In this document: piece after piece, positions 11,766-36,074 of the stretch | How the letters are laid out: every line of letters begins with the position of its first letter | How positions within the stretch are numbered: position 1 is the stretch's first letter | Assembly: GCA_043809585.1 (NCBI GenBank) | Contig: JBDROZ010000091.1 | Location: forward strand, 1-37,049 | Source of the DNA: Candidatus Eiseniibacteriota bacterium | GTDB lineage: Bacteria > Orphanbacterota > Orphanbacteria > Orphanbacterales > Orphanbacteraceae | Direction: 5' to 3' | Length of the DNA stretch: 37,049 nucleotides | Program-made: the position numbers and the translations under genes | The notes under the pieces: generated by a model | Told to the model about the DNA's origin: nothing | What the model saw: only the letters and a program-made list of their open reading frames with translations | The model's database searches: none

Positions 11766-11980
11766 TAGAACATAGCAGAGGATTTCTCCTGCCGAATCGA
11801 CTCGCCGCTAACGCCCCCGTTGATTCGAAACTTGGTACCGGAGTAACGATTCGAAGCTATGCCGGATCCCGGGTTATTGCGCGGAGAGCGCAGGTCCCGG
11901 GCCGGACCGAGAAGCCGCCGGCATGTCGCCGGATCGGCTCATCTTTCAGATTGCGGGGCGGAACGGAATTGGAGTCGAGA

Positions 11981-12819: not shown

Positions 12820-15800
12820 CTATCCACCTCCTTCTCCTTCGCCTCCTCTCAAAAACACCAACGGCAGCCTCAGAAGCATTGCCGCGAGTAACCTCGTTCG
12901 AATTCCGAGTAACCCGAGGAGAAGACGGCGACCGCTGTGAATCACACAGGCGTCGGCGAGGCGTTCCTTCGTGATCGACCGGCAATTCATCTTTAGGCAC
13001 GGGATCTCGTCGAAGTCCTCGTAGTGTCTCTTGAAGACGGCGTTCATGATCCCGTAGGCACCGAATGGCTCGAAGGTCTTCAGAAACGCGTCAACGCTCA
13101 TGTCTCCGAAGCGACCGGTGATGACGATCCAGAGGAGCTGAAAGCCCCTCGCACCGGCGAGGGAGTCGTCGGGAGGAATGCGGGCCAGGTAGTGCGAGAC
13201 GATGACCACGTCGTCCAGCTTGTCTCGAAAACCGGTGGGCAGACACTTCAACTCGTTGTTCGGCGAGTTGTTGGCTGTCTTACCCTGGTCGCGAATGTTG
13301 GCGGCGGCGGGGCTGTTCTCTATGACGTCCCGGATAGTAAGGACGCTGCCGGCGATCGTTCCGTTTCGAAGGAATTCGAGGGTTCGGACGACACCGTATG
13401 GCACCTGGACCCAGTTGACGGCGTTGTATCCTTCCAAATACTCGTTCGATCCTGACAACTTGTTTTCGATGAAACGGGTCTTCGACCCCCAGAAATCGGA
13501 AGACACGACGACCGACCAGTTGGCGGATCCCTCCACGAAGAGCTTTCCCTGAAAGGGAATGTTCTGGGGATGAAAGAGGGGGGACAGGCCCCGCAAGAAC
13601 CGGAGGGGACGGAACGAGTGAACTCCCCATGGGCCGTCCATGTCCCAATCGCGATAGTGTCGGAGCCGGGGGCCGAGGTTTCCCTCCCCCTGGAAGTTAT
13701 GGAAGTACTCGTGGATGACGATATCCTGCGTTTTCGCCTCGGAGAATCCGGGCACGATGAGGATCATCTTCTTTCCGTGCCTGCAAAGCCCCGCCCAGCC
13801 CCCTCCCGTGTTCCTAACGTCGTCCTCGGTCGCCAGCCGGAATCGGTAGGGGCGCCGAACGAGGGAACGCTGCTTGTCCGCCATCACCCGCAGACACTTC
13901 TCCTTCATCTGTCGCAGTTTCCCGTTGGATGAAACGGACCTCTTCTCGCCGAGCAATGCGGCCTGGACGTGGGCTTCCTGATCATCACCGAGGACGTCGC
14001 TCAGAAAACCGAGAGTAGCCCATTTGTTCAGCAGGGGGTCGCCCGGACCGTTACCGTGGCCGGGGTCGGAACAGCTCCAATCGTGAAGGCATCCACAACA
14101 ACCCGAGTCTTCATCACAGGGGCAGTCGGCGAGTATGCGCCAAGCCCGGCGGAAGGCGGATAGAATCGCTCCCTCCGTGTCGAGGTCGGCGATCGCCTGG
14201 GCGCTTCGAAGAAGGTCGTCGTAGATGTAAATGGAGCTTTCGGTCGCGACGAACTGGAGGCGCGAGTGAAGACTCCCCTGTTCGACGCTCAGCGCGCTTC
14301 GAAGGAGATGGGCCACGCCATGGACCACCGAAGCGCCATGGCCCGAATCCCCCCGGGCCAGGGAAATTCGGAGGGCCGGGGCTTCGAATTCCCGCCGGGG
14401 AGGGGATGGCCCCGCCCACATCTCCGACTCCCCCTCCGTGTCGAGGTCGAGACCTTGGTAGGTGCGCCGGCCGATCACCTCCTCGGTGACCTTGACCTTC
14501 CACCTTCCGAACGAATACCCATCGGTCTTGACCGCTCTGCCGATCTCTTCGACTTCCTCGATGGCGATGCGCGATATGCGTTTCGACATTTGCGCACGGG
14601 GCTCCGCCTGCACGAGAATATCGTCACCCGCATTTGACCATCGGTTTACCCGGTGCCGGCGGCCGTGCATCACGAAGACCGCACCCTCGAAGTAGAGCGC
14701 CGGGGCGTTCACCGCATCGACCCACGCGAGGATCCTGTCCGCCGCGCCACCGATGTCCCGGATCGCCATGACTCGATCGGTAATGACCTCGAGTGTGGCC
14801 AGAGCCTCCTGCACCCGGGAATCGGGTGCCCCATCCGAATCTTCGGATGCCGCCCGCTCTCTTTCGGCTTTCTCGACGGCGGCGAGGAAATCGGACGAGA
14901 GTAAGTTCCTCGCCAGATCCTCATCGACCGGTCCCTCTAGTTCTCCGAGGAAGGTCTCGGCATGATATCGGAGCGCCTCTTCCGATCGAACCGGCAGGTT
15001 GTAGAGCGTTCTCGGCAGGGGGCGTACCTCTCTGTGCATATCGTCCGCAACATCGATCAACTCGTCCGGCCGGTTCATGTAGTACTGGTAGAGCGGGGTG
15101 CGTGGGGCGAGGAGGAGAATGTCCAGGTGTCCCGCAGCAGCCAAATGGCGCGTCTCGGTTTCCAGAAAAGCTCCTGCGTTCTGATATCCCGCGAGGAGAA
15201 GCGTCCGGAGGTCCCCGATATCCTTCCCCTTCTTCAACAGCGCGGAGCGGAGCGATGGAAGATCGGACCCGAGGAAGAGAATCTCGTCGAGATCGGGGAC
15301 GGGAGGCGATTCACCCTTTTCGATCCTCAGTCGAACGTCGTCGAGAATCTGGTTGATCTCGGCGTCTGTTGCGCGGATTTCGCCGCTGATGATCCCCGTC
15401 GTCCGCCCCGTCGCAATCGAGGTGGAGGCCAGATTGACGAGTTCCTGCCAGTACCGGCGCCGGACGACGCGGAGCGTCATCGAGGGACCCGAGTCGCCGG
15501 AGACAGACTCGATGTCGACGTTCATGGCGCTCGGAGCCCAGACACTGAGGCTCCTCGTCGAGGTCCCGGCCCGGTCCACCAAGTCCTCGACCCGGCCGGG
15601 AATTCCGAGCTGGCCCGCGAACTCGGCGGGGTTCGTCATGCCCGGTAGCACCGTGATCCAGGGGGGTGAGAAACCCTTCGAGGCCAGGAAATAACGATAA
15701 CGGCCGATGACGTACCGGGCGTGACTGGCCATCGGACCCTCGAGGGATTCGAGATCTTCGGCGATCACGGCTTCCTGAAAGACGGCGAGTTCGGCGACGT

Positions 15801-16377
15801 CCTTTCCGTACTCCCGGAGAAGCCGGTGGAGGGTCGGAAGATCCGTGAATATGGCGGTGCCCGGCAAGAGAGAGCTTCCGAGCCGCTCCTCGAGATCACG
15901 TGTTCGAAGCTGGGTGAGGCCGACAAGCCAGGAAAGATGGGCGCGGTCGAGAGCGCCCTTCCAAAGCTCCTTCTGCCTACCGGCGAGGTCGTCCGTCGGG
16001 CAGAGAACCAGGACCGACCGACCCCTCTCGAAGAGACGGGGAAGGAGCCAGAGAGCGATCGCCGTCGTCCGGCCGCTCCCGAAGGGGAGGGCGACGGTCG
16101 TCGAGCGGTCCTCGCTGTCCGTGCCCGGGCGCGCCAGGCGGTCAAGAATGGCCTGCTGGTGTTTGTACACCTTCTCGATGCGGAGGGCCGTGGCGACCAG
16201 CGATTCGGCCCCTCCCCCGGGGGGGTGGTACTCGACCGACTCTCCCGGGGCGCCGCGAAGGCGCGGAACTTCGCGGCAGAGCGATCCCTGATACTCTTTC
16301 CAGAGAAGACCCTCGTTCAGCAGGCTGCGAGGATCCTGCCTGGATCGACTACGTCCCATGATCGATTTCGCGCTCAT
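12820..16377 (-). CDS. Degenerate MrfA/DUF1998-type SF2 helicase fused to an HExxH zinc metallopeptidase domain
   Basis: Q-motif VYKHQ, degenerate Walker A (PFGSGRTT) and Walker B (IAEDLE), PLYQYYMNRP, DUF1998 Cys cluster CPC..GCCGCL..C, then IHEYFH...FVEG. The start may be ATG 16359 instead. Confidence 0.78.
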   Translation of the reverse strand: MSAKSIMGRSRSRQDPRSLLNEGLLWKEYQGSLCREVPRLRGAPGESVEYHPPGGGAESLVATALRIEKVYKHQQAILDRLARPGTDSEDRSTTVALPFGSGRTTAIALWLLPRLFERGRSVLVLCPTDDLAGRQKELWKGALDRAHLSWLVGLTQLRTRDLEERLGSSLLPGTAIFTDLPTLHRLLREYGKDVAELAVFQEAVIAEDLESLEGPMASHARYVIGRYRYFLASKGFSPPWITVLPGMTNPAEFAGQLGIPGRVEDLVDRAGTSTRSLSVWAPSAMNVDIESVSGDSGPSMTLRVVRRRYWQELVNLASTSIATGRTTGIISGEIRATDAEINQILDDVRLRIEKGESPPVPDLDEILFLGSDLPSLRSALLKKGKDIGDLRTLLLAGYQNAGAFLETETRHLAAAGHLDILLLAPRTPLYQYYMNRPDELIDVADDMHREVRPLPRTLYNLPVRSEEALRYHAETFLGELEGPVDEDLARNLLSSDFLAAVEKAERERAASEDSDGAPDSRVQEALATLEVITDRVMAIRDIGGAADRILAWVDAVNAPALYFEGAVFVMHGRRHRVNRWSNAGDDILVQAEPRAQMSKRISRIAIEEVEEIGRAVKTDGYSFGRWKVKVTEEVIGRRTYQGLDLDTEGESEMWAGPSPPRREFEAPALRISLARGDSGHGASVVHGVAHLLRSALSVEQGSLHSRLQFVATESSIYIYDDLLRSAQAIADLDTEGAILSAFRRAWRILADCPCDEDSGCCGCLHDWSCSDPGHGNGPGDPLLNKWATLGFLSDVLGDDQEAHVQAALLGEKRSVSSNGKLRQMKEKCLRVMADKQRSLVRRPYRFRLATEDDVRNTGGGWAGLCRHGKKMILIVPGFSEAKTQDIVIHEYFHNFQGEGNLGPRLRHYRDWDMDGPWGVHSFRPLRFLRGLSPLFHPQNIPFQGKLFVEGSANWSVVVSSDFWGSKTRFIENKLSGSNEYLEGYNAVNWVQVPYGVVRTLEFLRNGTIAGSVLTIRDVIENSPAAANIRDQGKTANNSPNNELKCLPTGFRDKLDDVVIVSHYLARIPPDDSLAGARGFQLLWIVITGRFGDMSVDAFLKTFEPFGAYGIMNAVFKRHYEDFDEIPCLKMNCRSITKERLADACVIHSGRRLLLGLLGIRTRLLAAMLLRLPLVFLRGGEGEGGG

Positions 16378-18505
16378 AGAAGTTCAATACTCCGAACCGT
16401 CCTCTCCCGCGGACCGGGAGGAGGGCGATTTCGCCTCTGTCCGACAAGCGCTTCGAAAGCTCCTCCGCCCACCCGGCGTAGCCGTCGGGGAAGAAGAGAA
16501 TCCCTCGTGATTGCCCCGCCTTGTGGTAGTACGGAACGGGGCGATTGGACCTCAGTTCCCTCTCGATGCGATCAAAGACCGACTCGACCATTCCCGCGGT
16601 TTGGAGGGCGCCCGCATCTCCCAAGTACCTCTTCTCGACGAAGTGCTCGCTGACCCGATCCCGAACCCACACGAGAAAGCCGTCGGGGTCTTCTACGAAA
16701 TCGGGCAGGTTCTCTTTCGCGAGCCTCGCCGATACGGAAGTCGCGATCTCTTCGACCCGGTGATCCTCGGGCTCGAGCTCGAGGAGCCGGATCGCCTTTC
16801 GAACGACCTCGTCCGAGTAGGCCTTCGCCAGTTCTCTGATTCTCTCGTGATCCACGACCGAGATGGCTTCCGTCTTCTCCGCGAAGCTCCGGAGGTAGGT
16901 GAGAAACGCGCCGAGCCGCCCACGGAATCGACCGACCCGCGCCGCGGCCCTTTCGACGGTCTCCTCGATGAACGAGAGCCGCTGCTGGTGCTCATTCGCG
17001 AGAAAGAACCGGCGAATTCCATCGGATCGATCCGAGAAGTCCCGCCGAAGTTTCAATTTGCTCCGGTGAAAGAAGAACGCGCAAACAACCGTATAGAGCA
17101 GGGCGCCCAGCAGAGTGAATACGATGAGGCGGGGGAAGAGGGAATAGTCACGAATCAGCGGGATCTTCTGTTGGTAATGGCGGAGAAGAAGCATCGCGAT
17201 GATCGCGAGAGCGGGCCAGACGTAAGCGAGCCACCGGGGCCTGAGAAATCGATCCGCACGGATCTCGCGAACCTGCTCCCATTCCGTCCAACCGACCCGA
17301 TGACGAAGCTTGCCTGTCAGGGTCGCCCTCGCCTTCGCGATCCAATCGCGGCAGTGCGTGGAAAGGCGTCCTGCTCCTCCCTCTACGACGAGTATCCCCA
17401 ACACGTTGTGAAGATCTTTCGGCCAGAGACGCCCCGAGTTCCCGGCCCCCCTCACCCGATCGATCGTGGAGCCCAAGAATCGGGCTGTCCAGCCCGGAAC
17501 GCCTCGGAGGCCCTCCCGGTGGCGCTCCGAGACATCGGCGCCCGCCTGCATCATTCTGGACGCGTAGTCTCGGAGGCCGTTCCGGAGCTTTCGTTCCACA
17601 TCTTCGTAGTCCGCCTTCTTGCTCGATTGGGTCGAGAAGAAGCGGAGGTCATCGGTCGACACGTTCGGGTGGTCGGGAAGGGTCGGCCCACGCTCCCGTA
17701 TCAATTCGCCCGAGATCTGCTCGAGGGCCTTTTCGGCGAGGGCGTTCGCCAACTCGACATCCGATCCTTCCTTCATGGTCTCGGCCGTGGCAAGGAGGGC
17801 GAGAGCCCGCGGATAGTTGGCGTCTACCGCCGCGAGCCGGAATGCCTCGAGAAGATCCCGGCCGGGATCGAAAACGGCCGCACCCGGTATGATCCTTCGT
17901 CCGAGACTCGCGCCTTGGAGGAGGGGTTCCAGGGTTTGTTCATGGGGAGAAGCCGAGTTCACGAGGAGGTCGATAATCGTGAGGGCCGTGTCGCGAACAC
18001 GGGCCGGCGCCACCGGATGGCCGCCGGCGGGGTTTCTCTCTTCCACGAGAATCGGGACGAAGGGAAAGTCGCGGCGAAGTTCACAGGCGGCTTTCTCGTC
18101 TTCCTCGGCGAGTTCCGGGGCGATCAGGATCACCGCCCCCTCGCACGACAGTCCGAGAGCCCGGGCGCCGGCGCAGGCCTCCCGCAGCGAAGCCCAGAGG
18201 GCGTCCCTGGATCCGTCGCTCCCATCGAATACGAAGAGAAAACGGATCACGAAGTGCTCGAGGCCGGCGCTTCCCCCGATGAACGTATCGCCCCCGGCCT
18301 CCGCGATCGTCTCCACTCGAGCGCGGAGAAGGTCCCAGCTTTCGCGTAAAGAGCTCTCGTCGTATCCTCGGGCCAAGACGACGAACGGGGGGTCGTGCGC
18401 CTCTGATGCCTCCCGATAGGCGTCGTCCACGAGCGAACGGCCGGTCTCCGGATCCGGGACCGCCCTCACCGGCACGATGATGGTCGGACGAACCTCCCAG
18501 GGCAT
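16349..18505 (-). CDS. Membrane protein (2 TM, helical/coiled-coil regions), possibly with an inactivated tubulin-like N-terminus
   Basis: 718-aa ORF tightly coupled to both neighbours. Two hydrophobic helices (WLAYVWPALAIIAMLLL; LIVFTLLGALLYTVVCAFFF). Confidence 0.75.
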   Translation of the reverse strand: MPWEVRPTIIVPVRAVPDPETGRSLVDDAYREASEAHDPPFVVLARGYDESSLRESWDLLRARVETIAEAGGDTFIGGSAGLEHFVIRFLFVFDGSDGSRDALWASLREACAGARALGLSCEGAVILIAPELAEEDEKAACELRRDFPFVPILVEERNPAGGHPVAPARVRDTALTIIDLLVNSASPHEQTLEPLLQGASLGRRIIPGAAVFDPGRDLLEAFRLAAVDANYPRALALLATAETMKEGSDVELANALAEKALEQISGELIRERGPTLPDHPNVSTDDLRFFSTQSSKKADYEDVERKLRNGLRDYASRMMQAGADVSERHREGLRGVPGWTARFLGSTIDRVRGAGNSGRLWPKDLHNVLGILVVEGGAGRLSTHCRDWIAKARATLTGKLRHRVGWTEWEQVREIRADRFLRPRWLAYVWPALAIIAMLLLRHYQQKIPLIRDYSLFPRLIVFTLLGALLYTVVCAFFFHRSKLKLRRDFSDRSDGIRRFFLANEHQQRLSFIEETVERAAARVGRFRGRLGAFLTYLRSFAEKTEAISVVDHERIRELAKAYSDEVVRKAIRLLELEPEDHRVEEIATSVSARLAKENLPDFVEDPDGFLVWVRDRVSEHFVEKRYLGDAGALQTAGMVESVFDRIERELRSNRPVPYYHKAGQSRGILFFPDGYAGWAEELSKRLSDRGEIALLPVRGRGRFGVLNFYEREIDHGT

Positions 18506-18514
18506 TCTCGTCCC

Positions 18515-21418
18515 CTAGAATTCGAATACCGCGGTGGAATAGGCTTCCTGTTCGATCGCCCATTCGACGGTCTTCACGTCCCGGGCGTAAACTTCCTTCA
18601 GGCTCTTCGCCGTCTTCGGGTTGTCTCTTTTCTCCTCGAGCGCCTTCTTGAGGGCGGTGAAGATCTTCTTTCTTTCCTCGGGCGGCTGCTTTCTCCAGAC
18701 CCGGGTCGTATCATCCGACACGGCGGCCCGGGTCTCCGTCGGCTCGGAAACGAACCAGTCGATCACGTTTTCCCGTCCCCGAAGACCGGTCTCGAGGTTG
18801 TTTTGCCGGTACTTGTAAACGGCGCCCGCGATCCGAATGACCTCGAAGTGTTCGGCCAATAGGAAGACGAGCCGCGCGAAGCTCCGGCGGTCCTCGGAAA
18901 CCTCTTTTTCGGTGATACTCTTGTCGAGGAAGATCTCCCGACCCTTTTCCTGGGCCCAGACGGCGCTGTCCCTCCAAGTCCGGTTCGCGACGAGATCGTC
19001 GGGCACGAAGCCCGCGAGAACGGCGAAGAAGGAGACCTCGTAGGGATTCCCCGGCATGCGGGGATCGTTCGAATCGATCTTGAGCTCGTTCCCCATCCTC
19101 TCTCCGCCGGCGCCCGCGGACATGTATTCCGACAGCGAGGGAGCGTCCTTGCCGGATTTGCCACTGAGGACCTTTTCGTAGAACTCATTCCAGGCGTTCT
19201 CGTTGTAGAGCATGTAGCTGTGAGTTTCCGACCGGGCCGTATCCCGTAGAGAGGCGAAGGGGGCCGCGATGCGCGACGTTTTGGCCAGGAGATCGGTACA
19301 GTAGCTCTCGACGTCTCTTCCGGCCTCCGAGGCTTCTCGATCTATCGCCTGCCACACCGTCATGTCGACGGAGGACTGGAAACTGCCCTGCAGGGAACGA
19401 AGCATCTCGGCGCGGAGAGAGAATCCCCAATTCAGACGAAGCTTCGGGGTGAGATCCCCTCCCGTCTCGATGAAATCGAGGAGCCTCTCGACGACGAACC
19501 GTCCCAAAACCGTCCGAATTCGACCGCGGGCGACCTCCATCTGAGCCGCGAACTCGGGCTCGGAGGCCAGCTTCTTGTAAGCCGTCTCGGCGACCCCCTC
19601 CTGTCCCAGAACTTCGACGACTACTTCCGTCTTGACGTAGATATCGTTGTCCTCGAAGTCGGGGAAGGCCGAGTTCTGCAGACAATCACGAAGAGCCTGA
19701 ATGGCGAGCAGGAACGTATTCTGGAGGCGGGCATCGAGGTTCTCGACGTGTGCGATGTCCGCCGTCAGAGTCGCTTCTCTCCAGTGCGCGCCCAGGAGGG
19801 TACCGACGGACTTCTCGAGGTCTTCCTTCGAGGAGGCGCGCCGCACGCGATGAAGGAAGGACTCGTAGGTCTTCCTAAAGCCCTCGAGATCCTGGGCCAT
19901 CCGGCGCTCCGCGCTTTTCGATCGCTCCTGCTCTTTGTTCCTCTTCTTCGTGAGGTCTTGAGCCGCCGCCTGCAAATGCCCGGAGAGGGAGCGAAGCATG
20001 GCGTCGAGGGCGCCCCACGGAAGGGGCCGGTCGCCCGAAATCCGGGAGAGAAGACCCTCGCGAAGTTCTTTCCAGTCCGATTCGAGCTCCGGGTCCGTGT
20101 TGGCACTGATGTGTTCGTTGACCTGAGACTTGAAACGCTCCCACTCGGTGAGGACCTGCTCGCTGACCTGATGATAATTATCCGAATCGGCTCCCTCGAT
20201 CGCCGATCCGAGCTTGGAGGCCAGCTTGGCGGGAAGCTCGAGCGTCCTTACCGCTCCGAAACGGCGGATCGGCTTGCGGTAGTCCTGCGACAAGAGGGTC
20301 TCACGGAGGGAGTTCCAGACCTCGGACCCGACACCGTGACCCAGCTCGACGACATCCTTGTTCGTGAGTCCGTCCGAATCCCGGAGGTAGTCTTCGATGA
20401 CCAATCTCGCCAGCCGGTCTTGGTGCCTGAGAATCGGATATCGGAGAATCGATTTGCCTCCCGCCCCGAGGGGGTCCACGTTCGGCTTCTCCGCGAGTCC
20501 CATCGCGATGTTGATGAGGATCGGCTGCTCGCTGCTGAACTCGAGATCGAACAGGAAGTCCGCCGCGAGCTGCTCGTATTCGGTGAAATGATCGAGGAAC
20601 TGGCCGTGGGCGGAGCTGCCGTCCACGAGATAGAGAAGATCGAACGGCTTCGGTGGATCGGCCACGGCCTCCAGGGGCCTCGGATCGTCGAGGAAGAACC
20701 GGTAGCTGTACTTCGTTTCTCCGCACAGCACTTTTCGCGTCCAGAACGAGTTCTCCCAGAGGAAGGCGTACGTGTTCGCCTCGAAATAGCGATGGGCCCC
20801 CTTGGTCTTGCCGACCTGTGTTCCGGGGAGAAGGGCGATTCCGACGATACGGATGTCCCGAATGCCTTCCCTGTCGAAGAGCCAGCGGACGTAATGGGCG
20901 AGCGGGATCATGATCCCGGCGCCGGTTCCGCCGCACAGAGAGGCCGCGAGAAAGACCGTCGGCGTAGAGCCGGCCTCCGCCTGGACCCGTTCGACGGCCA
21001 TCGCGCTCTGGTGTGCGGAGAGGAGCACGTCTCGAATGAGCGAATCGAGGGGGTCGTAGGATCGGCGGTTCAGGTGATAGATGAGCCCGAGCTTCCCCTG
21101 GGGGCGGCGCTGTCCGAGTCCCGCGGTTCCGACATAGGTGGCGCACTTGTGCAGCGGTATGGGCCACCAGCTCGTGTCGAAGTCCTTCTCCTGCAATTCG
21201 CGAACATAGTCCGCGGGAGAGAACTTTCCCGTCCAGCAGTACTGGGAGCGCGACTTCATCTGGTCGTGCCAGATCTCGCCGTCGAATCCGAAAACCTTGT
21301 AGATGTACTGGGCTTCTTCGGAGTCCTTTCCGTAGAAGTCGACGATTTTGTCGTGGAGCTTGTTCGCCACACCGATGCCGGTGCCGCCGACGCCTATGAA
21401 GTACTTGGGTTGAGGCAT
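18515..21418 (-). CDS. FtsZ/tubulin-like GTPase (Tubulin_2 / FtsZl type) with long helical C-terminus
   Basis: FIGVGGTG, GLGQRR.G, tubulin signature SLCGGTGAG, EANTYA, PFDLLYLVD, coiled-coil middle region. RBS AAGGGGAG. Confidence 0.9.
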   Translation of the reverse strand: MPQPKYFIGVGGTGIGVANKLHDKIVDFYGKDSEEAQYIYKVFGFDGEIWHDQMKSRSQYCWTGKFSPADYVRELQEKDFDTSWWPIPLHKCATYVGTAGLGQRRPQGKLGLIYHLNRRSYDPLDSLIRDVLLSAHQSAMAVERVQAEAGSTPTVFLAASLCGGTGAGIMIPLAHYVRWLFDREGIRDIRIVGIALLPGTQVGKTKGAHRYFEANTYAFLWENSFWTRKVLCGETKYSYRFFLDDPRPLEAVADPPKPFDLLYLVDGSSAHGQFLDHFTEYEQLAADFLFDLEFSSEQPILINIAMGLAEKPNVDPLGAGGKSILRYPILRHQDRLARLVIEDYLRDSDGLTNKDVVELGHGVGSEVWNSLRETLLSQDYRKPIRRFGAVRTLELPAKLASKLGSAIEGADSDNYHQVSEQVLTEWERFKSQVNEHISANTDPELESDWKELREGLLSRISGDRPLPWGALDAMLRSLSGHLQAAAQDLTKKRNKEQERSKSAERRMAQDLEGFRKTYESFLHRVRRASSKEDLEKSVGTLLGAHWREATLTADIAHVENLDARLQNTFLLAIQALRDCLQNSAFPDFEDNDIYVKTEVVVEVLGQEGVAETAYKKLASEPEFAAQMEVARGRIRTVLGRFVVERLLDFIETGGDLTPKLRLNWGFSLRAEMLRSLQGSFQSSVDMTVWQAIDREASEAGRDVESYCTDLLAKTSRIAAPFASLRDTARSETHSYMLYNENAWNEFYEKVLSGKSGKDAPSLSEYMSAGAGGERMGNELKIDSNDPRMPGNPYEVSFFAVLAGFVPDDLVANRTWRDSAVWAQEKGREIFLDKSITEKEVSEDRRSFARLVFLLAEHFEVIRIAGAVYKYRQNNLETGLRGRENVIDWFVSEPTETRAAVSDDTTRVWRKQPPEERKKIFTALKKALEEKRDNPKTAKSLKEVYARDVKTVEWAIEQEAYSTAVFEF

Positions 21419-21452
21419 GATACTCCCCTTTCCGGCCGTGCCGTCGAAGCTC

Positions 21453-22874
21453 CTATCCGGAGGAATACTCCGCGCGATACTCTTCGTATTCGATGTCGGC
21501 GTAGCTGCCGAGTCGCACCTTTGGGCCGGTGAGCTCCTCGCCGTCCACCTTCAGGCCTTTTCGTTTCCTGTGCAGGATGACGTCGCCCGACCAGGTCGCG
21601 GTGAGGACGGCGACCACGCCGCCCGTTTCGCCGAAAGGAACGCCTTTCCGCGGTCCCAGCGAGATGCGGTGGCCGCAGAGTCGCGCCCGATTCTTCAGCC
21701 GGTAGTCGATCTCCCCCGTGGATATGGTCTGCTTGCGGAACTTCGGAAGAGCGAGGCAGGCCAAGAGCACGAGAATCAGGAGCAACAGGAGGGCCTGAAG
21801 CCAGCGGGGGAGGTCGAGGATCCACGACTTGACCCGCTGCCAGAGGGGGGGCTTCGATACCTTGATCTTCACCGGTACGTGGACGACCACGCGTTCATCG
21901 CACTCGAGCCCGGAGGTCTTCGGTGTGATGCGGACCTGGAGCTCGATGGTCTCCGATCTTGTCCCGATGGGGAAATCCAGGCTCAGATCTTTCTTCTGGC
22001 CCTGTTTGGTGAACCGCATTTCGGTCGGTGAAAGGGAAACGCCCGAGCCGCCGTCAAGGGCGATGTCTTTCGGCTCTCCGGGGGGAAGAGCGTGCGCCGC
22101 CTTCAGGGTGATTTCAGCTCGCTGTCGGCATTTCTCGGCGGGAATCCTCCCGTCCGGGTTCGCCTTCACCTCGATCTCGTCGAGGTAGTAATTCACATCT
22201 TCGAATCGGAGGATGGATCGCGTGATCTGTTCGGAAGCGGCGGGGGCTTCGACGACCTCGATCTCCTCCGGGATCTCCGAGGCGTCCAGCTCGGATCCGG
22301 GCAGTTGGACCAGATACACTCCCACGCCGTCGTTCCGGACGATACCGCCGGCGAACTCGTCTCGCATGACCGACTTCCAGTCGTTCGGCTCGGCGGCATC
22401 CGGGGGAGGATCGTGCTTTCCGTCCGTGAAGATGTAGACTTCGCTTCCGCCGAGGTCGTCCCCGGCCACCTCCCGGATCCACCGGGCGGCGTGGTAGACC
22501 GCACCGGTCAGGTTGGTATACTGGCCGTTCGGAGGATCCTGGCGGAGTGCCTGGATCGTCTGCCGAATGCGATCTTGCCCCCGAACGTCGAACTCATCCC
22601 TCTTTACCGTCTCGTGATCGAATGTGAAGACCGCGCAACGGATCCCGTCGTCGAGGTGCGCGGCATAGCGATTCTCGAGATCCGTGAGCAACCTCTCGTA
22701 CATATTGCCGCGAAGCATGCTCTTCGACGTGTCAATGACATAGGCGACCCGCTTCGGTTCGTCGTAGACCTTGTGGGTGGCCGGGGACCGCTCGGTTGAA
22801 TCTTCACAACCGGAATGGGCAAACAGGATGGAGAGCAGGGCGAGAAGGGAAGGGAGGTGACGTGGGAGCTTCAA
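21453..22874 (-). CDS. Membrane-anchored von Willebrand factor A domain protein
   Basis: MIDAS DxSxS (VIDTSKSM), YTNL, FTDGK. N-terminal lipoprotein-like signal (..LFAHSGC), C-terminal TM, short FHA-like tail. TTG at 22874 lies 8 nt after GGAGG; the start is uncertain. Confidence 0.85.
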   Translation of the reverse strand: MKLPRHLPSLLALLSILFAHSGCEDSTERSPATHKVYDEPKRVAYVIDTSKSMLRGNMYERLLTDLENRYAAHLDDGIRCAVFTFDHETVKRDEFDVRGQDRIRQTIQALRQDPPNGQYTNLTGAVYHAARWIREVAGDDLGGSEVYIFTDGKHDPPPDAAEPNDWKSVMRDEFAGGIVRNDGVGVYLVQLPGSELDASEIPEEIEVVEAPAASEQITRSILRFEDVNYYLDEIEVKANPDGRIPAEKCRQRAEITLKAAHALPPGEPKDIALDGGSGVSLSPTEMRFTKQGQKKDLSLDFPIGTRSETIELQVRITPKTSGLECDERVVVHVPVKIKVSKPPLWQRVKSWILDLPRWLQALLLLLILVLLACLALPKFRKQTISTGEIDYRLKNRARLCGHRISLGPRKGVPFGETGGVVAVLTATWSGDVILHRKRKGLKVDGEELTGPKVRLGSYADIEYEEYRAEYSSG

Positions 22875-23036
22875 AGTGCACGCCTCCATTGGTATTGAAC
22901 TCCTGGCGCTCCGATATCGCAGCGGCACTTCCGTGGGCCCGCAGAGGATGCGGCCCGGCCCTCCGGCCACGCCAACCAACACATTGAAAATTAATGAGTT
23001 GGGAGAGCGCCGGACCGAAGATACCCTTGTATGGAT

Positions 23037-23066
23037 ATTTTACTACTTATGGTGGGGTATTTTGAA
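23037..23066 (-). promoter_or_regulatory. Putative promoter of the vWA-tubulin operon
   Basis: Minus strand TTCAAA-18 nt-TAAAAT in the AT-rich stretch at about 22985-23095. Confidence 0.35.
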
Positions 23067-23429
23067 TAGAAAAAGCGGGCGGTATCTGGTTTAAGGCCCG
23101 AAAGTTGGGCGGATTGCCCGCGCCAACAGGGCTGGCGACGCCCCGGGCGGAGGCCCGCGAGCTTACTGGGAAGGGCGAAACGTCTCCCCCCCGTGGACGG
23201 CCCACATCCAGAGCAGCACAATGAACGGCGGCAGGTCGGCCTACGGGGCCAGGTACATCGGCACGATATCGATGATTCTCTCTGGTAGTCTTTTGTAGAT
23301 TCCTCTAATGCTCTGTGGGACAGTTCTGGGGGAAAGCCCCCCCCAGCGAGACCCGGCCCCTTGCTCGGAAGTTCGTTCAAGTCCCCCTGTTTTGCGTTGC
23401 TTTCCGACGTTCTCTTCAAAACCCGTGGA

Positions 23430-25112
23430 TCAGCCGATCAGCTTTTTGATCACCCAAGAACCGCGCCAGAGCAGTACGAGAGAAATTATGATTCCGAGAA
23501 GTAACGCGGCGGACCCGAGACGCGCAACGGCACTCCACCAGGTGCTGTGAGTGATAGTCAGGGTGGTGCCGGCAACGCTCAGCAGCGCAACGCCGAGAAC
23601 GCTCAGGTTCAGGTAGGTCAGGCGCCCCAACCGACGGTTCACCGTTGCGAGACTGAACTCGTGAAGAGCACGAATCTGTTGATCCACCTCGGAGAAAAGG
23701 TGTTCATTGTCCATGTTCCTGTTCCATAGCGAAAACATCTCGATGCCCTGTTCTTGAGCCGTTATCTCGCAGGACCAGTACTTGGTATGAAACCGAAGAA
23801 AATCGGATCGAAGGCGCTCAATATCGTCTCCGACAGACCTCTTGTCAAGATCTTCGGGCGAACTAACTCTCTGAGCAATCATGGTGCAACGGTGTGACAG
23901 ATCGAGAAGCCCCGCCCGATAGACGAGGAGGAGACACGCCATCTGAAAATACATAGAATCGAAATGCTTCAGTAATACGGATCTCGTGAAGCCCTCGGGG
24001 TCTGCGGCGCCGATGGGGGGAGTGGATCGGGGGCCGTCCGCGTGGAGGAGAAAGACCCCACTACATCGGGTGAACCCCATATATGTGCTCTCGTCCCGGT
24101 ATCGGAGATAGAGCCAATTGCTTAGAAAGCTGTCCCGGAGCCCCGGATTCGCGACGTAGTCTTTCCCTGCGGGATCGACCGCCAAGAGACGGAGAAGGGC
24201 CGACCGAAATAATTCGGGCTCGTCCGTAAGCTTTCCGAATACGTTCTCCGGGCTGGAAGCGAAGTCGGGAAGCTCGCTGGCACCGCCATCGATGGCTGTA
24301 TCGCCCCTGTCCGCGAGCACAAAGGAATGGACGAATCCACGCTCATCCAGGATGGGCGTGCTCTCCGAAACATCCAACCCGAGATCAACGGCGATTCTGT
24401 CGAGCCAAAACTGGAAATGGTTGCCCACGTATGGAGTTTTCGACGCTGACGAAAAGACCTCGTCGAACGAGTCGCCGAAGTCCTCCATCGCCTGCACCTT
24501 GTCCGGGGACTCGATTGAAATGGCCTCCGCCAGTTCTCGCTGGGCCTTTTGAATTCCCGCCCAGCTTCCTGCCGGCACATTATTGGGTGTCGGGCCATTC
24601 ACGGGGAAGGTGCTCGTATCGATAAACGAGGGGGCGCGGCGGCGGACCAGGTTATTGAGGTCGAGGAGGTCGTCGAAAGAGAAATCACCCGATAAACCGA
24701 CGCCCTCGGCGATCCGGTAATCCCAGTAGACCGAGAAAGACAGGACGGCGACACCGAGATCATAGAACATGACATGGACATCCGCCAGACCGAGGATTTT
24801 CTCAATCGCCTGGTCGACATCATTTCGAGGAGGCAGTTTCACGCGGAACTTCCAACCCCGAATCTTCTCATTCGGGACCTCGTACGCGAGCACGGATCTC
24901 TGTTCTTTAATAGGGCCGAAGAGAAGGTCTCGAGCATGGGGATGGAAGTAAACATACTCAGCGTAGGTTCTCGGGTCGCTTTGGCGAATCTGTTCCGTGG
25001 GCTGGAACATTGCGTCCGCCTTCTTGTGTTCGGGATTCTTCGCGCGAAGGCGTTCAAAGGATCCCGGGGGAAGGCAGAAAGGATAAAAGAAATGGGTCTT
25101 TATGAGCCTCAT
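23430..25112 (-). CDS. corA: CRISPR-associated CorA-like membrane effector
   Basis: Follows cmr6 directly. HFFYPF, YAEYVYFHP, LDERGFV, HFDSMYFQM, EITAQEQGIEMF, and two C-terminal TM helices, the pattern of type III-associated CorA. Confidence 0.82.
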   Translation of the reverse strand: MRLIKTHFFYPFCLPPGSFERLRAKNPEHKKADAMFQPTEQIRQSDPRTYAEYVYFHPHARDLLFGPIKEQRSVLAYEVPNEKIRGWKFRVKLPPRNDVDQAIEKILGLADVHVMFYDLGVAVLSFSVYWDYRIAEGVGLSGDFSFDDLLDLNNLVRRRAPSFIDTSTFPVNGPTPNNVPAGSWAGIQKAQRELAEAISIESPDKVQAMEDFGDSFDEVFSSASKTPYVGNHFQFWLDRIAVDLGLDVSESTPILDERGFVHSFVLADRGDTAIDGGASELPDFASSPENVFGKLTDEPELFRSALLRLLAVDPAGKDYVANPGLRDSFLSNWLYLRYRDESTYMGFTRCSGVFLLHADGPRSTPPIGAADPEGFTRSVLLKHFDSMYFQMACLLLVYRAGLLDLSHRCTMIAQRVSSPEDLDKRSVGDDIERLRSDFLRFHTKYWSCEITAQEQGIEMFSLWNRNMDNEHLFSEVDQQIRALHEFSLATVNRRLGRLTYLNLSVLGVALLSVAGTTLTITHSTWWSAVARLGSAALLLGIIISLVLLWRGSWVIKKLIG

Positions 25113-25151
25113 GTCTATTTCCCCGTCGGCAGTTTCATGCAGAGGGTCGAC

Positions 25152-26264
25152 CTAGTCGGAACCGGCGACGTTTCGCAGGTCCCGGTAACGTTTCTTCTTG
25201 GCGTCGGTTCCCCCTTCCCACTTGGCAATTACTTTTTGTCTCGGACCTGAGAGTAATGCCCGGGCATAGTTCCTCTTTTCGTCGGTATCCGGAAGGGCCA
25301 TGATGAAATCGAACATCTTTCGCAATCGACCTTGGGAATCGGGAACTCGGTTTTCCAGGGATTGCCAATAGGTCTCTATTTCGGGATCCTTTATGGACCC
25401 GAGGCACCTTTCCAGGGCTTTCGCTGCCGGGTCCGAAGATTCCAGCCGACCATAGCCGCTCGTCGTCTTCGCCCCGATCCCTTCCTCCTCGAGTGCGAGG
25501 CATAGAATATCGGTGGCCCTCTTTCTCCAGTCGTCGGCACCCTGGATGGCAACCAAGAAGCATGCCCCGGGAGCGACGGTCAGGTACGAGACGGGGTTGG
25601 GGTCGTCCCAATCGGCGGGAGGAGGCGGGTTGCTGCTCGCGCCATAGTACTCTGGATGATGGACAGTAATCACGTCACGCAGGAGTGACTTCTTGGACCT
25701 GGGATCGGGGATGAGCCATGCGTCGTGGAAGACGATTCCTCCCGCCCCTTCAGCGTGACCGAACAGGGTGTCATACGAAGTGAAACCCCATTCCTTGTCC
25801 AGCCCCATCTTGAGCCGATCATCTTGCTTTGTCGGGTTGCTTCCCCGGTAGTCGGCATGCAGCGATCCGAAACGGCTCAGGCAATATCGTCGGGCGAGTC
25901 CCTTGAGGGCCGTGCCGGGGAGTAGGGGAACTCCGTAGGTTTGGTGGAGGGTGATGGAAGTTTCGAGCACACTATCGGAACCGATTCCGACGATAATCCG
26001 CGAGAGTGCCTCCATCGGAGTCAAGGCGACTTTATTCTCCGCTTGAAGCAGATTGTGCCATCGTTGAAAAGCCCTGGAGTAGAGGGCGCCCGATGGGCAC
26101 TGAATGTCGTTCAGGACTTGGTCAATGGCATCTCTTTTCGCCGCCCCCTTGTCTCCCAACCTCTCGACCCATCGATCGAGCCACAAGCCGGGATGGGTCG
26201 ATGGGGTGGGAGCGATGCCGGCCAACGCCCGGCGTCTCGAGGAGACTTCGCGGGTCGGGCTCAT
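25152..26264 (-). CDS. cmr6: Type III-B RAMP protein Cmr6
   Basis: ETSITLHQTYGVPLLPGTALKGL, FHDAW, DVITVHH..YY, DWDDPNPV, GIGAKTTSGYG. Confidence 0.95.
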   Translation of the reverse strand: MSPTREVSSRRRALAGIAPTPSTHPGLWLDRWVERLGDKGAAKRDAIDQVLNDIQCPSGALYSRAFQRWHNLLQAENKVALTPMEALSRIIVGIGSDSVLETSITLHQTYGVPLLPGTALKGLARRYCLSRFGSLHADYRGSNPTKQDDRLKMGLDKEWGFTSYDTLFGHAEGAGGIVFHDAWLIPDPRSKKSLLRDVITVHHPEYYGASSNPPPPADWDDPNPVSYLTVAPGACFLVAIQGADDWRKRATDILCLALEEEGIGAKTTSGYGRLESSDPAAKALERCLGSIKDPEIETYWQSLENRVPDSQGRLRKMFDFIMALPDTDEKRNYARALLSGPRQKVIAKWEGGTDAKKKRYRDLRNVAGSD

Positions 26265-26641
26265 GCCCCGTCTCCCTCGTCAGTCTTCTTGATTCCGAGA
26301 ATCGCCTCGGAAAACCTCGCGTAGTACACGGCCGCCGCCAGGGCGATCCGAGTGGCTTGCATGTAGGCCGGGTAATCGGCGCCCCTTAAGTAGTCATAGA
26401 CCGACCCCGTCCCTTCCTCGGGGAGCACAAGCTTCCCCAAGTGGTCGAGAAAGGCCGTGTTGGCGTCATTATCACGACTCGCGTAGAAAGCGACGGTTTG
26501 CATCAGTCCGTTGGTCAATACGAGGCCGGGAAAGCGGAGCCACAGCCGACCGTAGTCCTTCTTCCAGGTCCGGTCGCCCACGGAGTTGATGTGGTCGAGC
26601 GCCGTGCCGGCCAGTTTCTGGGATCGCGTTTGGTTCGGCAT
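26261..26641 (-). CDS. cmr5: Type III-B small subunit Cmr5
   Basis: 126 aa, Y...FPGLVLTNGLMQTVAF, YMQATR; lies between cmr4 and cmr6. Confidence 0.92.
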   Translation of the reverse strand: MPNQTRSQKLAGTALDHINSVGDRTWKKDYGRLWLRFPGLVLTNGLMQTVAFYASRDNDANTAFLDHLGKLVLPEEGTGSVYDYLRGADYPAYMQATRIALAAAVYYARFSEAILGIKKTDEGDGA

Positions 26642-26650
26642 CCTCCCCTC

Positions 26651-27535
26651 CTACGACTTCACCAGTCGTGCCCGGCCGTACCCGACAGTTGCCTTGCCAC
26701 CCAATTGAAGAATGCACTCCTTGCAATTGTCGTTGCTCTTGTCGCCGGTGAAGGCAAAGTTGATGATCTCGTTCGGACCGAGATTGATTCCTTCTTTGTA
26801 CGATTGTTCTGCGAGGGCGATTCCCCAGAGAATGCTCTCCGCGGGCAGGGCCTCCTCATACCAGAGAGCACCTTCCTTGACGACTTTCAGGTTCTCTTCA
26901 AGACGAATGCGGGCCCGAACCTCGAGAGCATTTTCGTACAAGAACGAAAAGACATCGTCTCCCAAAATGGCGAATCGTCTTCGAAACTCGGCCTGCCAGG
27001 GCTCATCGTCGGGAAAGACGAGTTTGCCGATTCGCTCCGCCCACTCCTTGGCAACCCCCTGCTCGTCCGGGCGCCGTTCGAGATCCAGGTCCTCCAGTAG
27101 TATCTTCTGGCCGTTCTCCGGCAGGAGGAGGGATTCAGAGTCTACGACATGGGCCTGAAAGCCGTTCAGTTCGATCGGTTTCCAATTCGGCAACTCCATG
27201 TCCCTCGCGAGGCGATGGAGAACGATCGGCGACGTGGTCCAGGCGAAGGTACCGCAGATGGATCGGACGGGGAGACAGAGGAGGCGGGCGTCGGAGAAGG
27301 TGATGGCCCCGGCATGCTCGTCCGATTTGTCCGTGTCGGGGCCGAATACGGCCACGAAGTCATCCGTTGGGGAGGAGTGCTTCGCCCGGAGCACCCCTTT
27401 GATCCCGCTCCCATAGTAGACCGGGAGCCTGGTGACCACCTCCCGGGCGATCGGGAGATCCACCGGACCGACGCCGGAACCGATGCCGGCGTGCAGCGGA
27501 GACAAGGCGTGGATGAAATATGTGCAGACCTTCAT
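26651..27535 (-). CDS. cmr4: Type III-B RAMP protein Cmr4 (Cas7, target RNase)
   Basis: SPLHAGIG, VDLPIARE (catalytic Asp), GSGIKG, DARLLCLPVRS, ALWYEE.LP.E, QLGGKATVGYG. Start ATG 27535. Confidence 0.96.
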   Translation of the reverse strand: MKVCTYFIHALSPLHAGIGSGVGPVDLPIAREVVTRLPVYYGSGIKGVLRAKHSSPTDDFVAVFGPDTDKSDEHAGAITFSDARLLCLPVRSICGTFAWTTSPIVLHRLARDMELPNWKPIELNGFQAHVVDSESLLLPENGQKILLEDLDLERRPDEQGVAKEWAERIGKLVFPDDEPWQAEFRRRFAILGDDVFSFLYENALEVRARIRLEENLKVVKEGALWYEEALPAESILWGIALAEQSYKEGINLGPNEIINFAFTGDKSNDNCKECILQLGGKATVGYGRARLVKS

Positions 27536-27552
27536 GAAAGATCCTCCATTCT

Positions 27553-28710
27553 TCACTCGGTGCGCTCGGACCATACTCCCCAGAGCGCCAGGCCGAAGCC
27601 ATCCAGGCGATCTTGAGGGTCGTCACAGACGGACTGAAGCCAGGTCTTCCGCGTGAGATCCGAGGGATTCCCCGAAATGACTCGGAAGTAGTATACACTG
27701 CCCGCAGGCGCCAACCGGCGAAGCGGCTTAGGCCCCTTTCGCTGCAGGTCCCATCCCCCGAGGGACTCCCATCGTGGGACACAGGCGCCGACGAGCTCGA
27801 GGACGGAATCGCCGTGGATCCCCGGTGGCGTGCCGCGAAGGGGCTCTTTCTCGGAAGTCTTGTCCGGACCCATCCATCCCGGGCACCAGCCCCCGTTAAA
27901 GATTCCAGGTGTGGCGAGCTGCATGCGCAAGAGTTCCGAGTTCTTCAATGCGTCATCGAGCGCGGAGGGGGGGGCTGTTGGCCAAGGGTCGTCCGAGTCG
28001 CACGGCTCGAAACGCGCCATCCCTCCATCGCCGCCAATCCGATGCATCGAGTCCTCCACGGGAGAATGGGTGCGGACGAGCAGCTCCCCACTCCTGACGC
28101 CCGATATGCCGGGAGCCGGCGATTTCACCATCAGAGAGACCATGTCCGTGACGTAGAGCATGCCCTCTTCCGAAGTTTCCGTGGCGTTGTTCGTCTTGTG
28201 CCTAGTCCTCGAATCCACCGAGGGGGTGCACCACCAATCCGCATTGATATTCGTCTTCTTGAGTCGGCCCGTGAGCCAGTCGTAGGTGGCGGACGCGGCG
28301 AGGAAACTACCGAAGGCGTCCGGTTTCGCTGAGACGGAGGAATGACCGATCGGACGGAGTTGATGAGGGAGATTCACGCCCTGTGATGATTCGAGAGCGA
28401 CCGGGCCCATATCCTGGATTCGACCGTCCCGGATCCGCAGGTCCGCCGGCGATGGGAAGTACACGACGGTCTCAACGAAAAGAAGGGGCCCGAGAACCGG
28501 CCATGTCCGGATCTCGGTGACAGCGCTCGGATCACCGAAATCCATGCCCCTCTGCTTTGCCAGCAAGGTGCGCAGAGTCCCGGTGGTTACCGAAGGGTAG
28601 GGGAATTCCCTGCTCCGGGCGCGGGCTCCCCCTCCCAAACCGTAAGGACGAGTGTCGCGAAACATGAGCGAGCCGTGGGGCAAGATCCGAACGGTGTGCA
28701 TCTTCATCAC
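27553..28710 (-). CDS. cmr3: Type III-B Cmr3 (Cas5)
   Basis: LMFRDTRPY, PYPSVTTGTLR, IGGDG, LATPGIF..GW, GGWD, PAGSVY, DGFG. Confidence 0.94.
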   Translation of the reverse strand: MMKMHTVRILPHGSLMFRDTRPYGLGGGARARSREFPYPSVTTGTLRTLLAKQRGMDFGDPSAVTEIRTWPVLGPLLFVETVVYFPSPADLRIRDGRIQDMGPVALESSQGVNLPHQLRPIGHSSVSAKPDAFGSFLAASATYDWLTGRLKKTNINADWWCTPSVDSRTRHKTNNATETSEEGMLYVTDMVSLMVKSPAPGISGVRSGELLVRTHSPVEDSMHRIGGDGGMARFEPCDSDDPWPTAPPSALDDALKNSELLRMQLATPGIFNGGWCPGWMGPDKTSEKEPLRGTPPGIHGDSVLELVGACVPRWESLGGWDLQRKGPKPLRRLAPAGSVYYFRVISGNPSDLTRKTWLQSVCDDPQDRLDGFGLALWGVWSERTE

Positions 28711-32846: not shown

Positions 32847-32938
32847 TCCTGAACCCGCTCGCCGAAACGGAGAAGAAGGCGGGCGAGCCGATCGCGAAGT
32901 CGATCATCCTCGATATCGTAAACCACCACGTAAAGCAT
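32843..32938 (-). pseudogene. cas2: 5' fragment of cas2 truncated by a CRISPR repeat
   Basis: MLYVVVYDIEDDRLRDRLARLLLRFGERVQES is a canonical Cas2 N-terminus. It runs straight into the repeat in place of the usual VFE... Confidence 0.88.
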
Positions 32939-32961
32939 AGGCAATCGATTTGTCGCGCCCC

Positions 32962-35835: not shown

Positions 35836-36074
35836 TGGACGCCTCCAGGGGCGGGGAGCGCGATGGGGTTACGACATGGAAAGGGCGGGGTCTTTTCCCT
35901 TCTCAATATATGGGGCGATGCGGGCGGTCCCCCGCGGATGAACCAACCCTGCTCCTCCCCTCCCGCCGAAGCACCCAAGACCGCACCGCACCCCGTGGGC
36001 TGCCCCCGCGGCTCGTCTCGAGCCTTATCCCGCTAGTCCCTCGACAAATGGACGTTGATCGCCCGCGACGCGAA

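Follow-up and report, generated by a model that had tools for sequence, protein, structure and literature searches.

A recurrent four-gene module of a vWA protein, a Tubulin_2 GTPase, a membrane-hairpin protein and a pseudohelicase-zincin fusion in uncultured bacteria

A stretch of 37,049 nucleotides of Candidatus Eiseniibacteriota bacterium (GenBank assembly GCA_043809585.1, contig JBDROZ010000091.1, positions 1 to 37,049; hereafter the window) carries four tightly packed genes next to a type III-B locus of clustered regularly interspaced short palindromic repeats (CRISPR), which raises the question of whether these genes form a unit and what such a unit might do. They encode an exported vWA protein, a Tubulin_2 GTPase (Tub), an orphan membrane-hairpin protein (X) and a fusion of a degenerate helicase, an MZB domain and a zincin peptidase (HMP). 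Based on all analyses, it was considered almost certain that they constitute a conserved module of four parts, which is mobile and membrane-associated and has the Tubulin_2 GTPase and the pseudohelicase-zincin fusion as its basis. As to its role, a system of defence against phages or mobile elements was favoured, with a probability of roughly 45% that was inferred from genomic context and domain logic.

Recurrence of the four genes as a unit

All four genes are located on the minus strand in the order vWA, Tub, X and HMP. The vWA gene occupies positions 21453..22889 when read from an ATG codon (21453-22982 from an alternative GTG start), Tub (967 aa) positions 18515..21418, X (718 aa) positions 16349..18505 and HMP (1185 aa) positions 12820..16377. 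An earlier reading of the letters alone (the sequence-only reading) had described four co-oriented genes with gaps of 34 nt and 9 nt followed by an overlap; the open reading frame (ORF) coordinates agreed with this, the gaps lying between vWA and Tub and between Tub and X, and the overlap of X with HMP being 29 nt long. Only the outer boundary had to be moved: the vWA gene was present, but its likely start was the ATG at 22889, preceded by GGAG, rather than position 22874.

An exhaustive phmmer search with HMP retrieved 125 representatives at E <= 1e-3, 44 at E <= 1e-10 and 11 at E <= 1e-30, the weak end of the list grading into ordinary helicases without a peptidase. Loci were collected by scanning contigs with a 7-row HMP alignment and one peptide pattern, which yielded at least 6 loci from one-genome-per-species contigs and at least 22 from metagenome contigs; these counts are lower bounds because a single peptide pattern was used. 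Their ORFs were called by a simple longest-ORF procedure followed by a Pfam scan. Some of the loci, cited here by number, were redundant: L009, L032 and L033 were the same DNA, and L017/L023, L020/L021 and L026/L027 were overlapping or near-copies.

The order vWA-Tubulin_2-X-HMP was found in eight loci beyond the window (L008, L014, L016, L017, L018, L024, L026 and L028) and also in L012, where the first gene was cut by the contig end. In 11 of the 12 readable loci (the nine ordered loci including L012, together with L032 and L011), the second gene upstream of HMP encoded Tubulin_2, the exception being L015 with a DDE transposase at this position. Only full-length HMP proteins entered this count, from which L030, a short peptidase-like protein in another context, was left out. 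The third gene upstream of HMP encoded a Pfam-detectable vWA protein in 8 of 10 readable loci; the two exceptions were the cut gene of L012 and L032, the upstream genes of which were on the opposite strand. The G+C content of the contigs bearing the module ranged from 0.28 to 0.73, and metagenome-assembled genomes of Spirochaetes, Proteobacteria and Chloroflexota were represented. It was concluded that many uncultured bacteria, unrelated to one another, carry the four genes in this one order, and the synteny on which the sequence-only reading depended was thus established.

The pairwise distances of Tub, HMP and X correlated with one another across 11 loci (r of 0.92, 0.85 and 0.87), and the observed value was reached in none of 5000 permutations. 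Such a correlation fits inheritance as a unit; shared host ancestry could also contribute. The parts have changed unevenly, since Tub and HMP were alignable everywhere and X and vWA were beyond phmmer detection with their topology kept.

Further, the distribution of the module was investigated in 10 species genomes of the phylum, including that of the window, 7 of the other 9 being at least 90% complete. The HMP peptidase profile matched only in the genome of the window, and no close Tub homologue was found in the same 10 genomes. The G+C content of the module was 0.619, compared with 0.664 for the genome, which placed it among the lowest 2.8% of 10-kb windows; the adjacent block from cmr to corA, at 0.601, was among the lowest 0.6%. 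The module looked foreign in its genome and appeared to have been acquired horizontally.

The four proteins

HMP was assigned from sub-threshold DEAD and MZB matches, from motifs and from a peptidase model. It consists of a degenerate MrfA-like superfamily 2 (SF2) helicase core, a four-cysteine (Cys4) MZB zinc domain and an M1-like HExxH…E gluzincin peptidase. The window protein remained below the Pfam cutoffs for both DEAD (22.4 against 26) and MZB (22.9 against 24.2). Its operon relatives passed the MZB cutoff with up to 54.7 bits, and the MZB homology of the window HMP was therefore regarded as real but diverged. The helicase motifs read GSGRT for GSGKT and AEDLES for DExH, the zinc cluster CPCx5CxxC comprises C752, C754, C760 and C763, and the peptidase carries HEYFH with the residues H889, E890, H893, E949 and Y980.

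The conservation of these motifs was evaluated over the HMP family. A helicase N-domain was aligned for 72 peptidase-bearing members; among these, the Walker-A lysine was kept in 17, arginine was present in 42 and another residue in 13. The DExH motif was found in none of the 72 peptidase-bearing members, in contrast to 32 of 39 relatives lacking the peptidase. The residues H889, E890 and H893 were kept in 93-95 of 95 family members, E949 and G950 in 96 of 96, Y980 in 94 of 96, and each of the four MZB cysteines in 117-124 of 126. These counts therefore indicate family-wide decay of the helicase and strong constraint on both the zinc domain and the peptidase. The dead helicase with an HExxH domain, as noticed in the window sequence, was accordingly a property of the whole family.

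An AlphaFold2 model of the peptidase domain (residues 800-1185 of the window HMP, 15-row alignment) reached a predicted local distance difference test (pLDDT) value of 70.3. In an all-against-representatives VIA fold search, the top eight matches of this model were M1-family catalytic domains (aminopeptidases and leukotriene A4 (LTA4) hydrolases) with Z values of 10.2-11.6, root-mean-square deviations of 3.0-4.7 and 160-185 aligned residues. MATCAP (Z about 8) as well as SPRTN and Wss1 (Z 7.1-7.2) were also among the matches. A Foldseek search of the same model against PDB gave nothing at E <= 0.001.

The motifs HEYxHNW, xEGFA and YxEG parallel those of aminopeptidase N, the hmmsearch against PepN giving only an E of 0.95. 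The HMP peptidase thus has in common with M1 gluzincins (aminopeptidase N, LTA4 hydrolase, tricorn-interacting factor F3) the HEYxHNW motif, the Glu of a downstream xEGxA, the Tyr of YxEG and the fold matches. In contrast to these enzymes, HMP possesses neither the M1 N-terminal beta domain nor a GAMEN-like motif, AGLC being found upstream of HExxH, and the HExxH-to-Glu spacing of the window protein is 55 residues, when that of M1 enzymes is much shorter, at 18. No Peptidase_M1 Pfam match was obtained for the window HMP either, and its identity as a true M1 aminopeptidase was rejected on the grounds of the missing motif, domain and match. Because of the absent N-terminal domain and GAMEN-like motif and the 55-residue spacing, the sequence makes an endopeptidase more likely than an exopeptidase.

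A branch of HMP proteins (L017, L018, L024, L026, L028, L032, L020 and L025) was equipped with three or four added N-terminal hydrophobic segments, which are not present in the window HMP. The closest architecture outside the family was that of the MrfA/YprA-type SF2 helicases, in which an SF2 core is likewise followed by a Cys4 MZB (DUF1998) zinc domain. HMP differs from them by the loss, in most members, of the catalytic Lys and DExH and by a zincin fused C-terminally; no PADLOC model matched it at E <= 0.01. Pairs of a helicase and DUF1998 also occur in the defence systems DISARM and Druantia.

Tub, an FtsZl1-type protein, matched Tubulin_2 (PF13809) over residues 7-296 with 102 bits against a cutoff of 27 (E of 5.4e-29) and contains GVGGTGIG and CGGTGAG. 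The alignment positions G12, G162, T163 and G164, which include the GTG of the GGTG[SA]G signature, were invariant in 12 of 12 operon homologues, so that the 967-aa GTPase with intact GGTGAG claimed earlier was confirmed. C-terminal to the GTPase domain (approximately residues 7-296) lies a long helical region, for which no Pfam match was found at E <= 5. The closest operon homologue was that of L014 (2.3e-39); a word-indexed protein search with the window Tub gave only 2 weak matches, and an hmmsearch of the Tub profile against PDB sequences gave nothing meaningful. The sole PADLOC match among the four proteins was a weak and non-specific one to Cas11 (14 bits, E of 0.0089) on the coiled region of Tub. 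A second Tubulin_2 gene of the same genome was observed on another contig, C109 (L005:9771-13037, 1088 aa, 3.6e-61), in a different co-oriented cluster with unassigned proteins and zinc-ribbon, P-domain and TPR proteins.

The vWA protein matched VWA_2 with 30.9 bits against a cutoff of 27 (E of 4.5e-7). Its N-terminus is signal- or lipoprotein-like, and a hydrophobic segment at residues 394-412 (numbered from the GTG start) is followed by a tail of 97 aa, which is predicted to be cytoplasmic, lying beyond a C-terminal transmembrane anchor. DTSKS and TDG are present, and neither the DxSxS residues nor those of TDG varied among the operon vWA proteins, 9 of which were aligned. A hydrophobic leader was found at the N-terminus of all 9, and a C-terminal transmembrane helix with a tail of 100-146 aa in most of them. 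The surface vWA protein with an intact metal-ion-dependent adhesion site (MIDAS) and a transmembrane anchor proposed by the sequence-only reading was thereby supported. An FHA-like look of the tails was only an impression and gained no support, as no Pfam match to the tails was found at E <= 5.

X comprises an N-terminal alpha/beta and helical region of ~430 aa, a hydrophobic hairpin at approximately residues 433-481 and a C-terminal region of ~230 aa, in agreement with the earlier description of the third gene product as a protein with two transmembrane segments. No Pfam, NCBIfam or PADLOC match was obtained, nor any Pfam match at E <= 5 for its two halves; a word-indexed protein search gave no homologue beyond X itself, an hmmsearch of the X profile against PDB sequences yielded nothing meaningful, and an AlphaFold2 model from the single sequence was unusable (pLDDT 40.5). 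The proteins at the X position of other loci fell into two sequence groups linked by hhalign with 89% probability, L017 joining group B at 98.7%. Nearly all X proteins share one plan, in which 370-500 residues, a hydrophobic hairpin and 220-290 residues follow one another, and the topology of the window protein was common to 15 of them.

Some leads on the origin of X were obtained from ESM Atlas. The window X and the X of L028 share a neighbouring cluster (866 aa, 52 members) with scores of 0.95 and 0.94, and both list a cluster of 1016 aa with Tubulin_2 in 17% of its members; the Atlas model of the window X resembles a Tubulin_2 cluster with a TM-score of 0.42. On these results, which were treated as leads only, X might be a decayed membrane-anchored tubulin paralogue. 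Hence, of the "tubulin-like pair" of the sequence-only reading, the second member has lead-level support, provided by the partly Tubulin_2 cluster and the TM-score. An hhalign comparison of X group B with the Tub alignment (52.7% probability) was too weak to be used.

Neighbouring genes and described relatives

Upstream of the module and outside it, a type III-B effector locus extends over positions 23430..31889 of the minus strand. It comprises the genes for Cmr1, Cas10/Cmr2, Cmr3, Cmr4, Cmr5 and Cmr6 (31889-25152, minus strand) and for a CorA-like membrane effector (23430-25112, minus strand; PADLOC CorA 4.6e-57). GGDD was present in Cas10/Cmr2, and no HD domain match was found in it. Positions 32030..37031 are taken up by two CRISPR arrays (at about 32030-32846, near the cmr genes, and at about 36157-37031), a Cas6-RT-Cas1 fusion between them (RT, reverse transcriptase; 32962-35751, minus strand; Cas1 2.4e-65, RVT_1 6.8e-34, Cas6 2.2e-8) and a remnant of cas2. 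From the assignments of the arrays, Cas6-RT-Cas1, Cmr and CorA, the neighbourhood was therefore classified as a CRISPR-Cas locus of type III-B in which CorA is the membrane effector; the sequence-only reading had not mentioned it. The cas2-like ORF starts at 32938 (MLYVVVYDIEDD...) and after ~31 codons enters the outermost CRISPR repeat (32812-32846); cas2 therefore appears truncated beside the fusion gene. No NrN/DHH-type or lyase-type signal-degrading gene was recognised beside CorA (22890-25112).

The 540-nt spacer that separates corA from the vWA gene (22890..23429, minus strand) contains a sigma-70-like site at 23066-23037 (TTCAAA-18-TAAAAT), which makes a promoter of its own probable for the module. 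Contigs from sequencing runs were short and of low depth, with none across the corA-vWA junction, and no RNA run was among those listed. A 142-aa ORF in the spacer (22991-23419) was rejected as a gene, for example of a CorA signal-degrading enzyme, as it had no family match and the region looks intergenic, with the promoter-like site. On the other side, an RRM_1 (RNA recognition motif) gene at 11714-12247 of the plus strand (1.5e-20) faces the operon end in convergent orientation; such proteins are uncommon among bacteria. Farther away, an ORF at 4789-6231 (minus strand) gave weak partial matches to TonB-dependent receptors (best E of 1.5e-4) covering its C-terminal part, and could represent a fragment bordering the low-GC block. 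When the window was scanned for Rfam families and tRNAs, no matches were obtained.

The flanks of other loci were varied. L032 is flanked by a LeoA/LeoBC-like dynamin fusion, Cas6, PrimPol and an archaeo-eukaryotic primase (AEP) domain of the TOTE type, L020 by a PD-T4-6-like kinase with vWA and FHA genes, and L014 by TCAD9/HD-CE. PADLOC candidate families were found beside L016, L017 and L024, an integrase beside L006 and a transposase beside L015. The dynamin-like protein of L032 (L032:11595-15425, 1276 aa) matched both LeoBC (4.1e-73) and LeoA (1.4e-66) of PADLOC, thus representing a fused pair; it lies ~1.1 kb downstream of the module, with one gene between, and is followed by Cas6 and the CRISPR-type PrimPol/TOTE AEP. 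Sigma-54-dependent response regulators (Response_reg and Sigma54_activat) adjoin the module in two loci unrelated to each other, at L008:366-1850 and L014:16805-18235, and could be its regulators; PADLOC rates them RtcR/PspF-like through only the AAA+ part of the model.

Genes for MlaD-domain proteins follow HMP at L018:11515-12795, L024:13048-14319, L026:12050-13429, L010:1462-2784 and L031:855-2117, an LppM domain being also present in two cases. A second Tubulin_2 gene comes after the MlaD-like gene in L026/L027 and L031. With these additional genes, the cluster of the MlaD branch may be larger and comprise six to eight genes.

Further, the operon was compared with three groups of published systems. 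FtsZl1 was defined by Makarova and Koonin in 2010 (PMC2875224), who described vWA partners with intact MIDAS and many membrane proteins and predicted membrane remodelling. Those operons resemble the present one in having a Tubulin_2 GTPase beside a MIDAS vWA protein with signal or transmembrane segments and beside lineage-specific membrane proteins, the function being predicted only. Their recurrent partners differ: protein kinases, P-loop GTPases and OmpA-like proteins are named there, none of which is found in the window operon, and the fixed partners of the latter are X and HMP, when the word "helicase" does not occur in the main text of that paper.

Kaur et al. 2020 (PMC7159879) described GTPase-centric (GAP1-N2 / DO-GTPase) systems that include tubulin and vWA proteins and were argued to be conflict systems. 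The common features are tubulin-family proteins with C-terminal helical or coiled-coil extensions beside a membrane vWA protein, the domain of which is extracellular. In contrast to the window operon, these systems are defined by TRAFAC GTPases, some with HSP70 and FNIII proteins, none of which was found in the operon; they have no helicase-MZB-peptidase partner, and DUF1998 is not mentioned in that paper. No GTPase family other than Tubulin_2 was detected in the four genes of the window or of 8 other full loci.

Altae-Tran et al. 2023 (PMC10910872) reported an association with CRISPR loci for vWA systems that include tubulin and transmembrane proteins, and Table S3 of that paper lists the candidates "(vWA + Tubulin)" and "(Tubulin + other protein + vWa)" with seed genes of 3135 and 2970 nt. 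Here too CRISPR-linked vWA, tubulin and transmembrane genes are involved, and the seeds are approximately the size of the operon Tubulin_2 genes; the labels, by which alone the comparison was made, name no helicase or peptidase partner.

No description of the four-gene combination was found in open-access papers and bioRxiv. The novelty that the sequence-only reading had seen in the combination of partners was consequently narrowed: Tubulin_2 and vWA operons are known as a class, if uncharacterised, and CRISPR-linked "vWA + Tubulin" loci are in print, and what appears to be undescribed is confined to the HMP partner and the fixed order of the four genes.

Readings of the function

We proposed that a defence module with these parts would operate from the membrane. 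The exported vWA/MIDAS protein, with one transmembrane helix and a short cytoplasmic tail, would be the fast-evolving part that binds a ligand or senses the envelope. The membrane hairpin of X, with its two large cytoplasmic regions, would anchor the cytoplasmic Tubulin_2 GTPase, which may assemble on X in a GTP-dependent manner. HMP would no longer act as a helicase; its decayed SF2 core and Cys4 MZB domain might bind nucleic acid or a nucleotide, and such binding would gate the M1-like zinc endopeptidase. The peptidase would then cleave a component of the module, Tub or X being the obvious candidates, or a protein of the invader or host, and cleavage would switch on membrane remodelling or damage, by which infection would be blocked. 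As a complete chain, in which a helicase-turned nucleic-acid sensor gates an M1-like zincin that processes Tub or X, thereby freeing GTP-driven membrane polymerisation and aborting infection, and in which the window copy may also be wired to type III-B/CorA, the scheme was judged unlikely. Within it, the zincin might act on Tub or X much as MATCAP trims tubulin tails.

In favour of a defence role we counted the fixed gene order, the correlated distances, the patchy distribution with signs of acquisition, the uneven rates of change, the HMP motifs and peptidase fold, the defence-type and mobile-element genes flanking the module in the window and in some other loci, and the promoter-like site. 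Several observations weigh against such a role. The counts of defence genes in the flanks are raw, not scaled to a background rate near random genes, and therefore anecdotal and suggestive only, and ordinary flanks were also found, in L028 (glyS, UbiA, VIT1 and a histidine kinase) and in L007. HMP had no match in plasmid and phage collections. The four proteins matched no system model of PADLOC-DB 2.0, bar the weak Cas11 match on Tub, in line with the earlier view of a candidate undescribed system. The window X had no match to either X group by phmmer or hhalign, and it is a candidate homologue of the other X proteins by its position and topology. Finally, an MlaD-like gene stands directly after HMP in L018, L024, L010 and L031, as well as in L026 below the cutoff, and this fits envelope maintenance too.

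The last point bears on the best of the alternatives, which was considered somewhat unlikely. Here the module would be a membrane-remodelling or lipid-homeostasis machine of the envelope with no immune role: a Tub polymer on X would shape or repair the membrane, the vWA protein would contact the cell wall or outer membrane, and HMP would serve as a quality-control protease. Membrane remodelling is what was predicted in 2010 for FtsZl1 and vWA operons (PMC2875224), and attachment to the membrane applies, in at least some family members, to all proteins but Tub, namely to vWA, X and those HMP forms that carry hydrophobic segments at the N-terminus. The MlaD-like genes, the second Tubulin_2 gene of L026/L027 and L031, and the sigma-54 response regulators beside L008 and L014 point in the same direction. 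Such a housekeeping role is harder to reconcile with the absence of the module from 9 of 9 other genomes of the phylum, with its rarity (the scan of species genomes, confined to a single search pattern, gave 6 loci), with its low G+C content for the genome and with the fast divergence of X and vWA; a nucleic-acid-type sensor domain (SF2 core and MZB) also has no obvious use in lipid homeostasis.

An improbable alternative is that the module serves the neighbouring type III-B system as an accessory effector arm, which would be activated by the Cas10 signal or the Cmr complex. The genes from cmr1 to HMP do run in the same direction within one low-GC block, Cas6 and a CRISPR-type PrimPol lie 7-10 kb downstream of the module in L032, and the CRISPR-associated vWA/tubulin candidates of Altae-Tran et al. 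(PMC10910872) have seeds close to the Tubulin_2 gene in size. The two loci are, however, separated by the 540-nt spacer with its promoter-like site, and CorA already provides an effector of the locus. Searches of the four proteins with Pfam, NCBIfam and PADLOC revealed neither CARF nor SAVED nor another family that binds signals; the N-terminal alpha/beta region of X is unassigned. The window was the only array-bearing module locus, no CRISPR array being found in the other fetched ones, and cas-type genes were present in the flanks of L032 only. With one query, Cas10 was not found in the two genomes holding L008 and L009; a reverse transcriptase near L008 was not counted as cas, since it is a split enzyme with no Cas1. 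The failure to detect signal-binding families and the missing cas genes near most relatives argue for an autonomous rather than a CRISPR-coupled module, which looks like an independent unit placed in the same island, 540 nt downstream of the type III-B locus.

It was very improbable that HMP is a DNA-repair factor, MrfA-like with a DNA-dependent protease acting on DNA-protein crosslinks as SPRTN and Wss1 do, among three unrelated neighbours, as the sub-threshold MZB (MrfA Zn-binding) and DEAD matches and the SPRTN and Wss1 fold matches are opposed by the fixed synteny of HMP with Tubulin_2 and X in 11 of 12 readable loci, by the N-terminal membrane segments of some HMP forms, by the loss of the helicase motifs and by Z values of ~7 being within the stated background range of the tool.

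To our knowledge, no Tubulin_2 or FtsZl1 system has a demonstrated function. The present module offers four fixed parts with clear mutational handles, namely GGTGAG, MIDAS, the Cys4 cluster and HExxH, and its decayed helicase fused to a conserved protease leads to concrete biochemical predictions. If the module is an envelope machine, it would give the first handle on the function of FtsZl1 proteins. If it is a defence system, as we favour, a cytoskeletal GTPase and a nucleic-acid-gated zincin would be added to bacterial immunity, and the "vWA + Tubulin" loci reported near CRISPR arrays would be explained.

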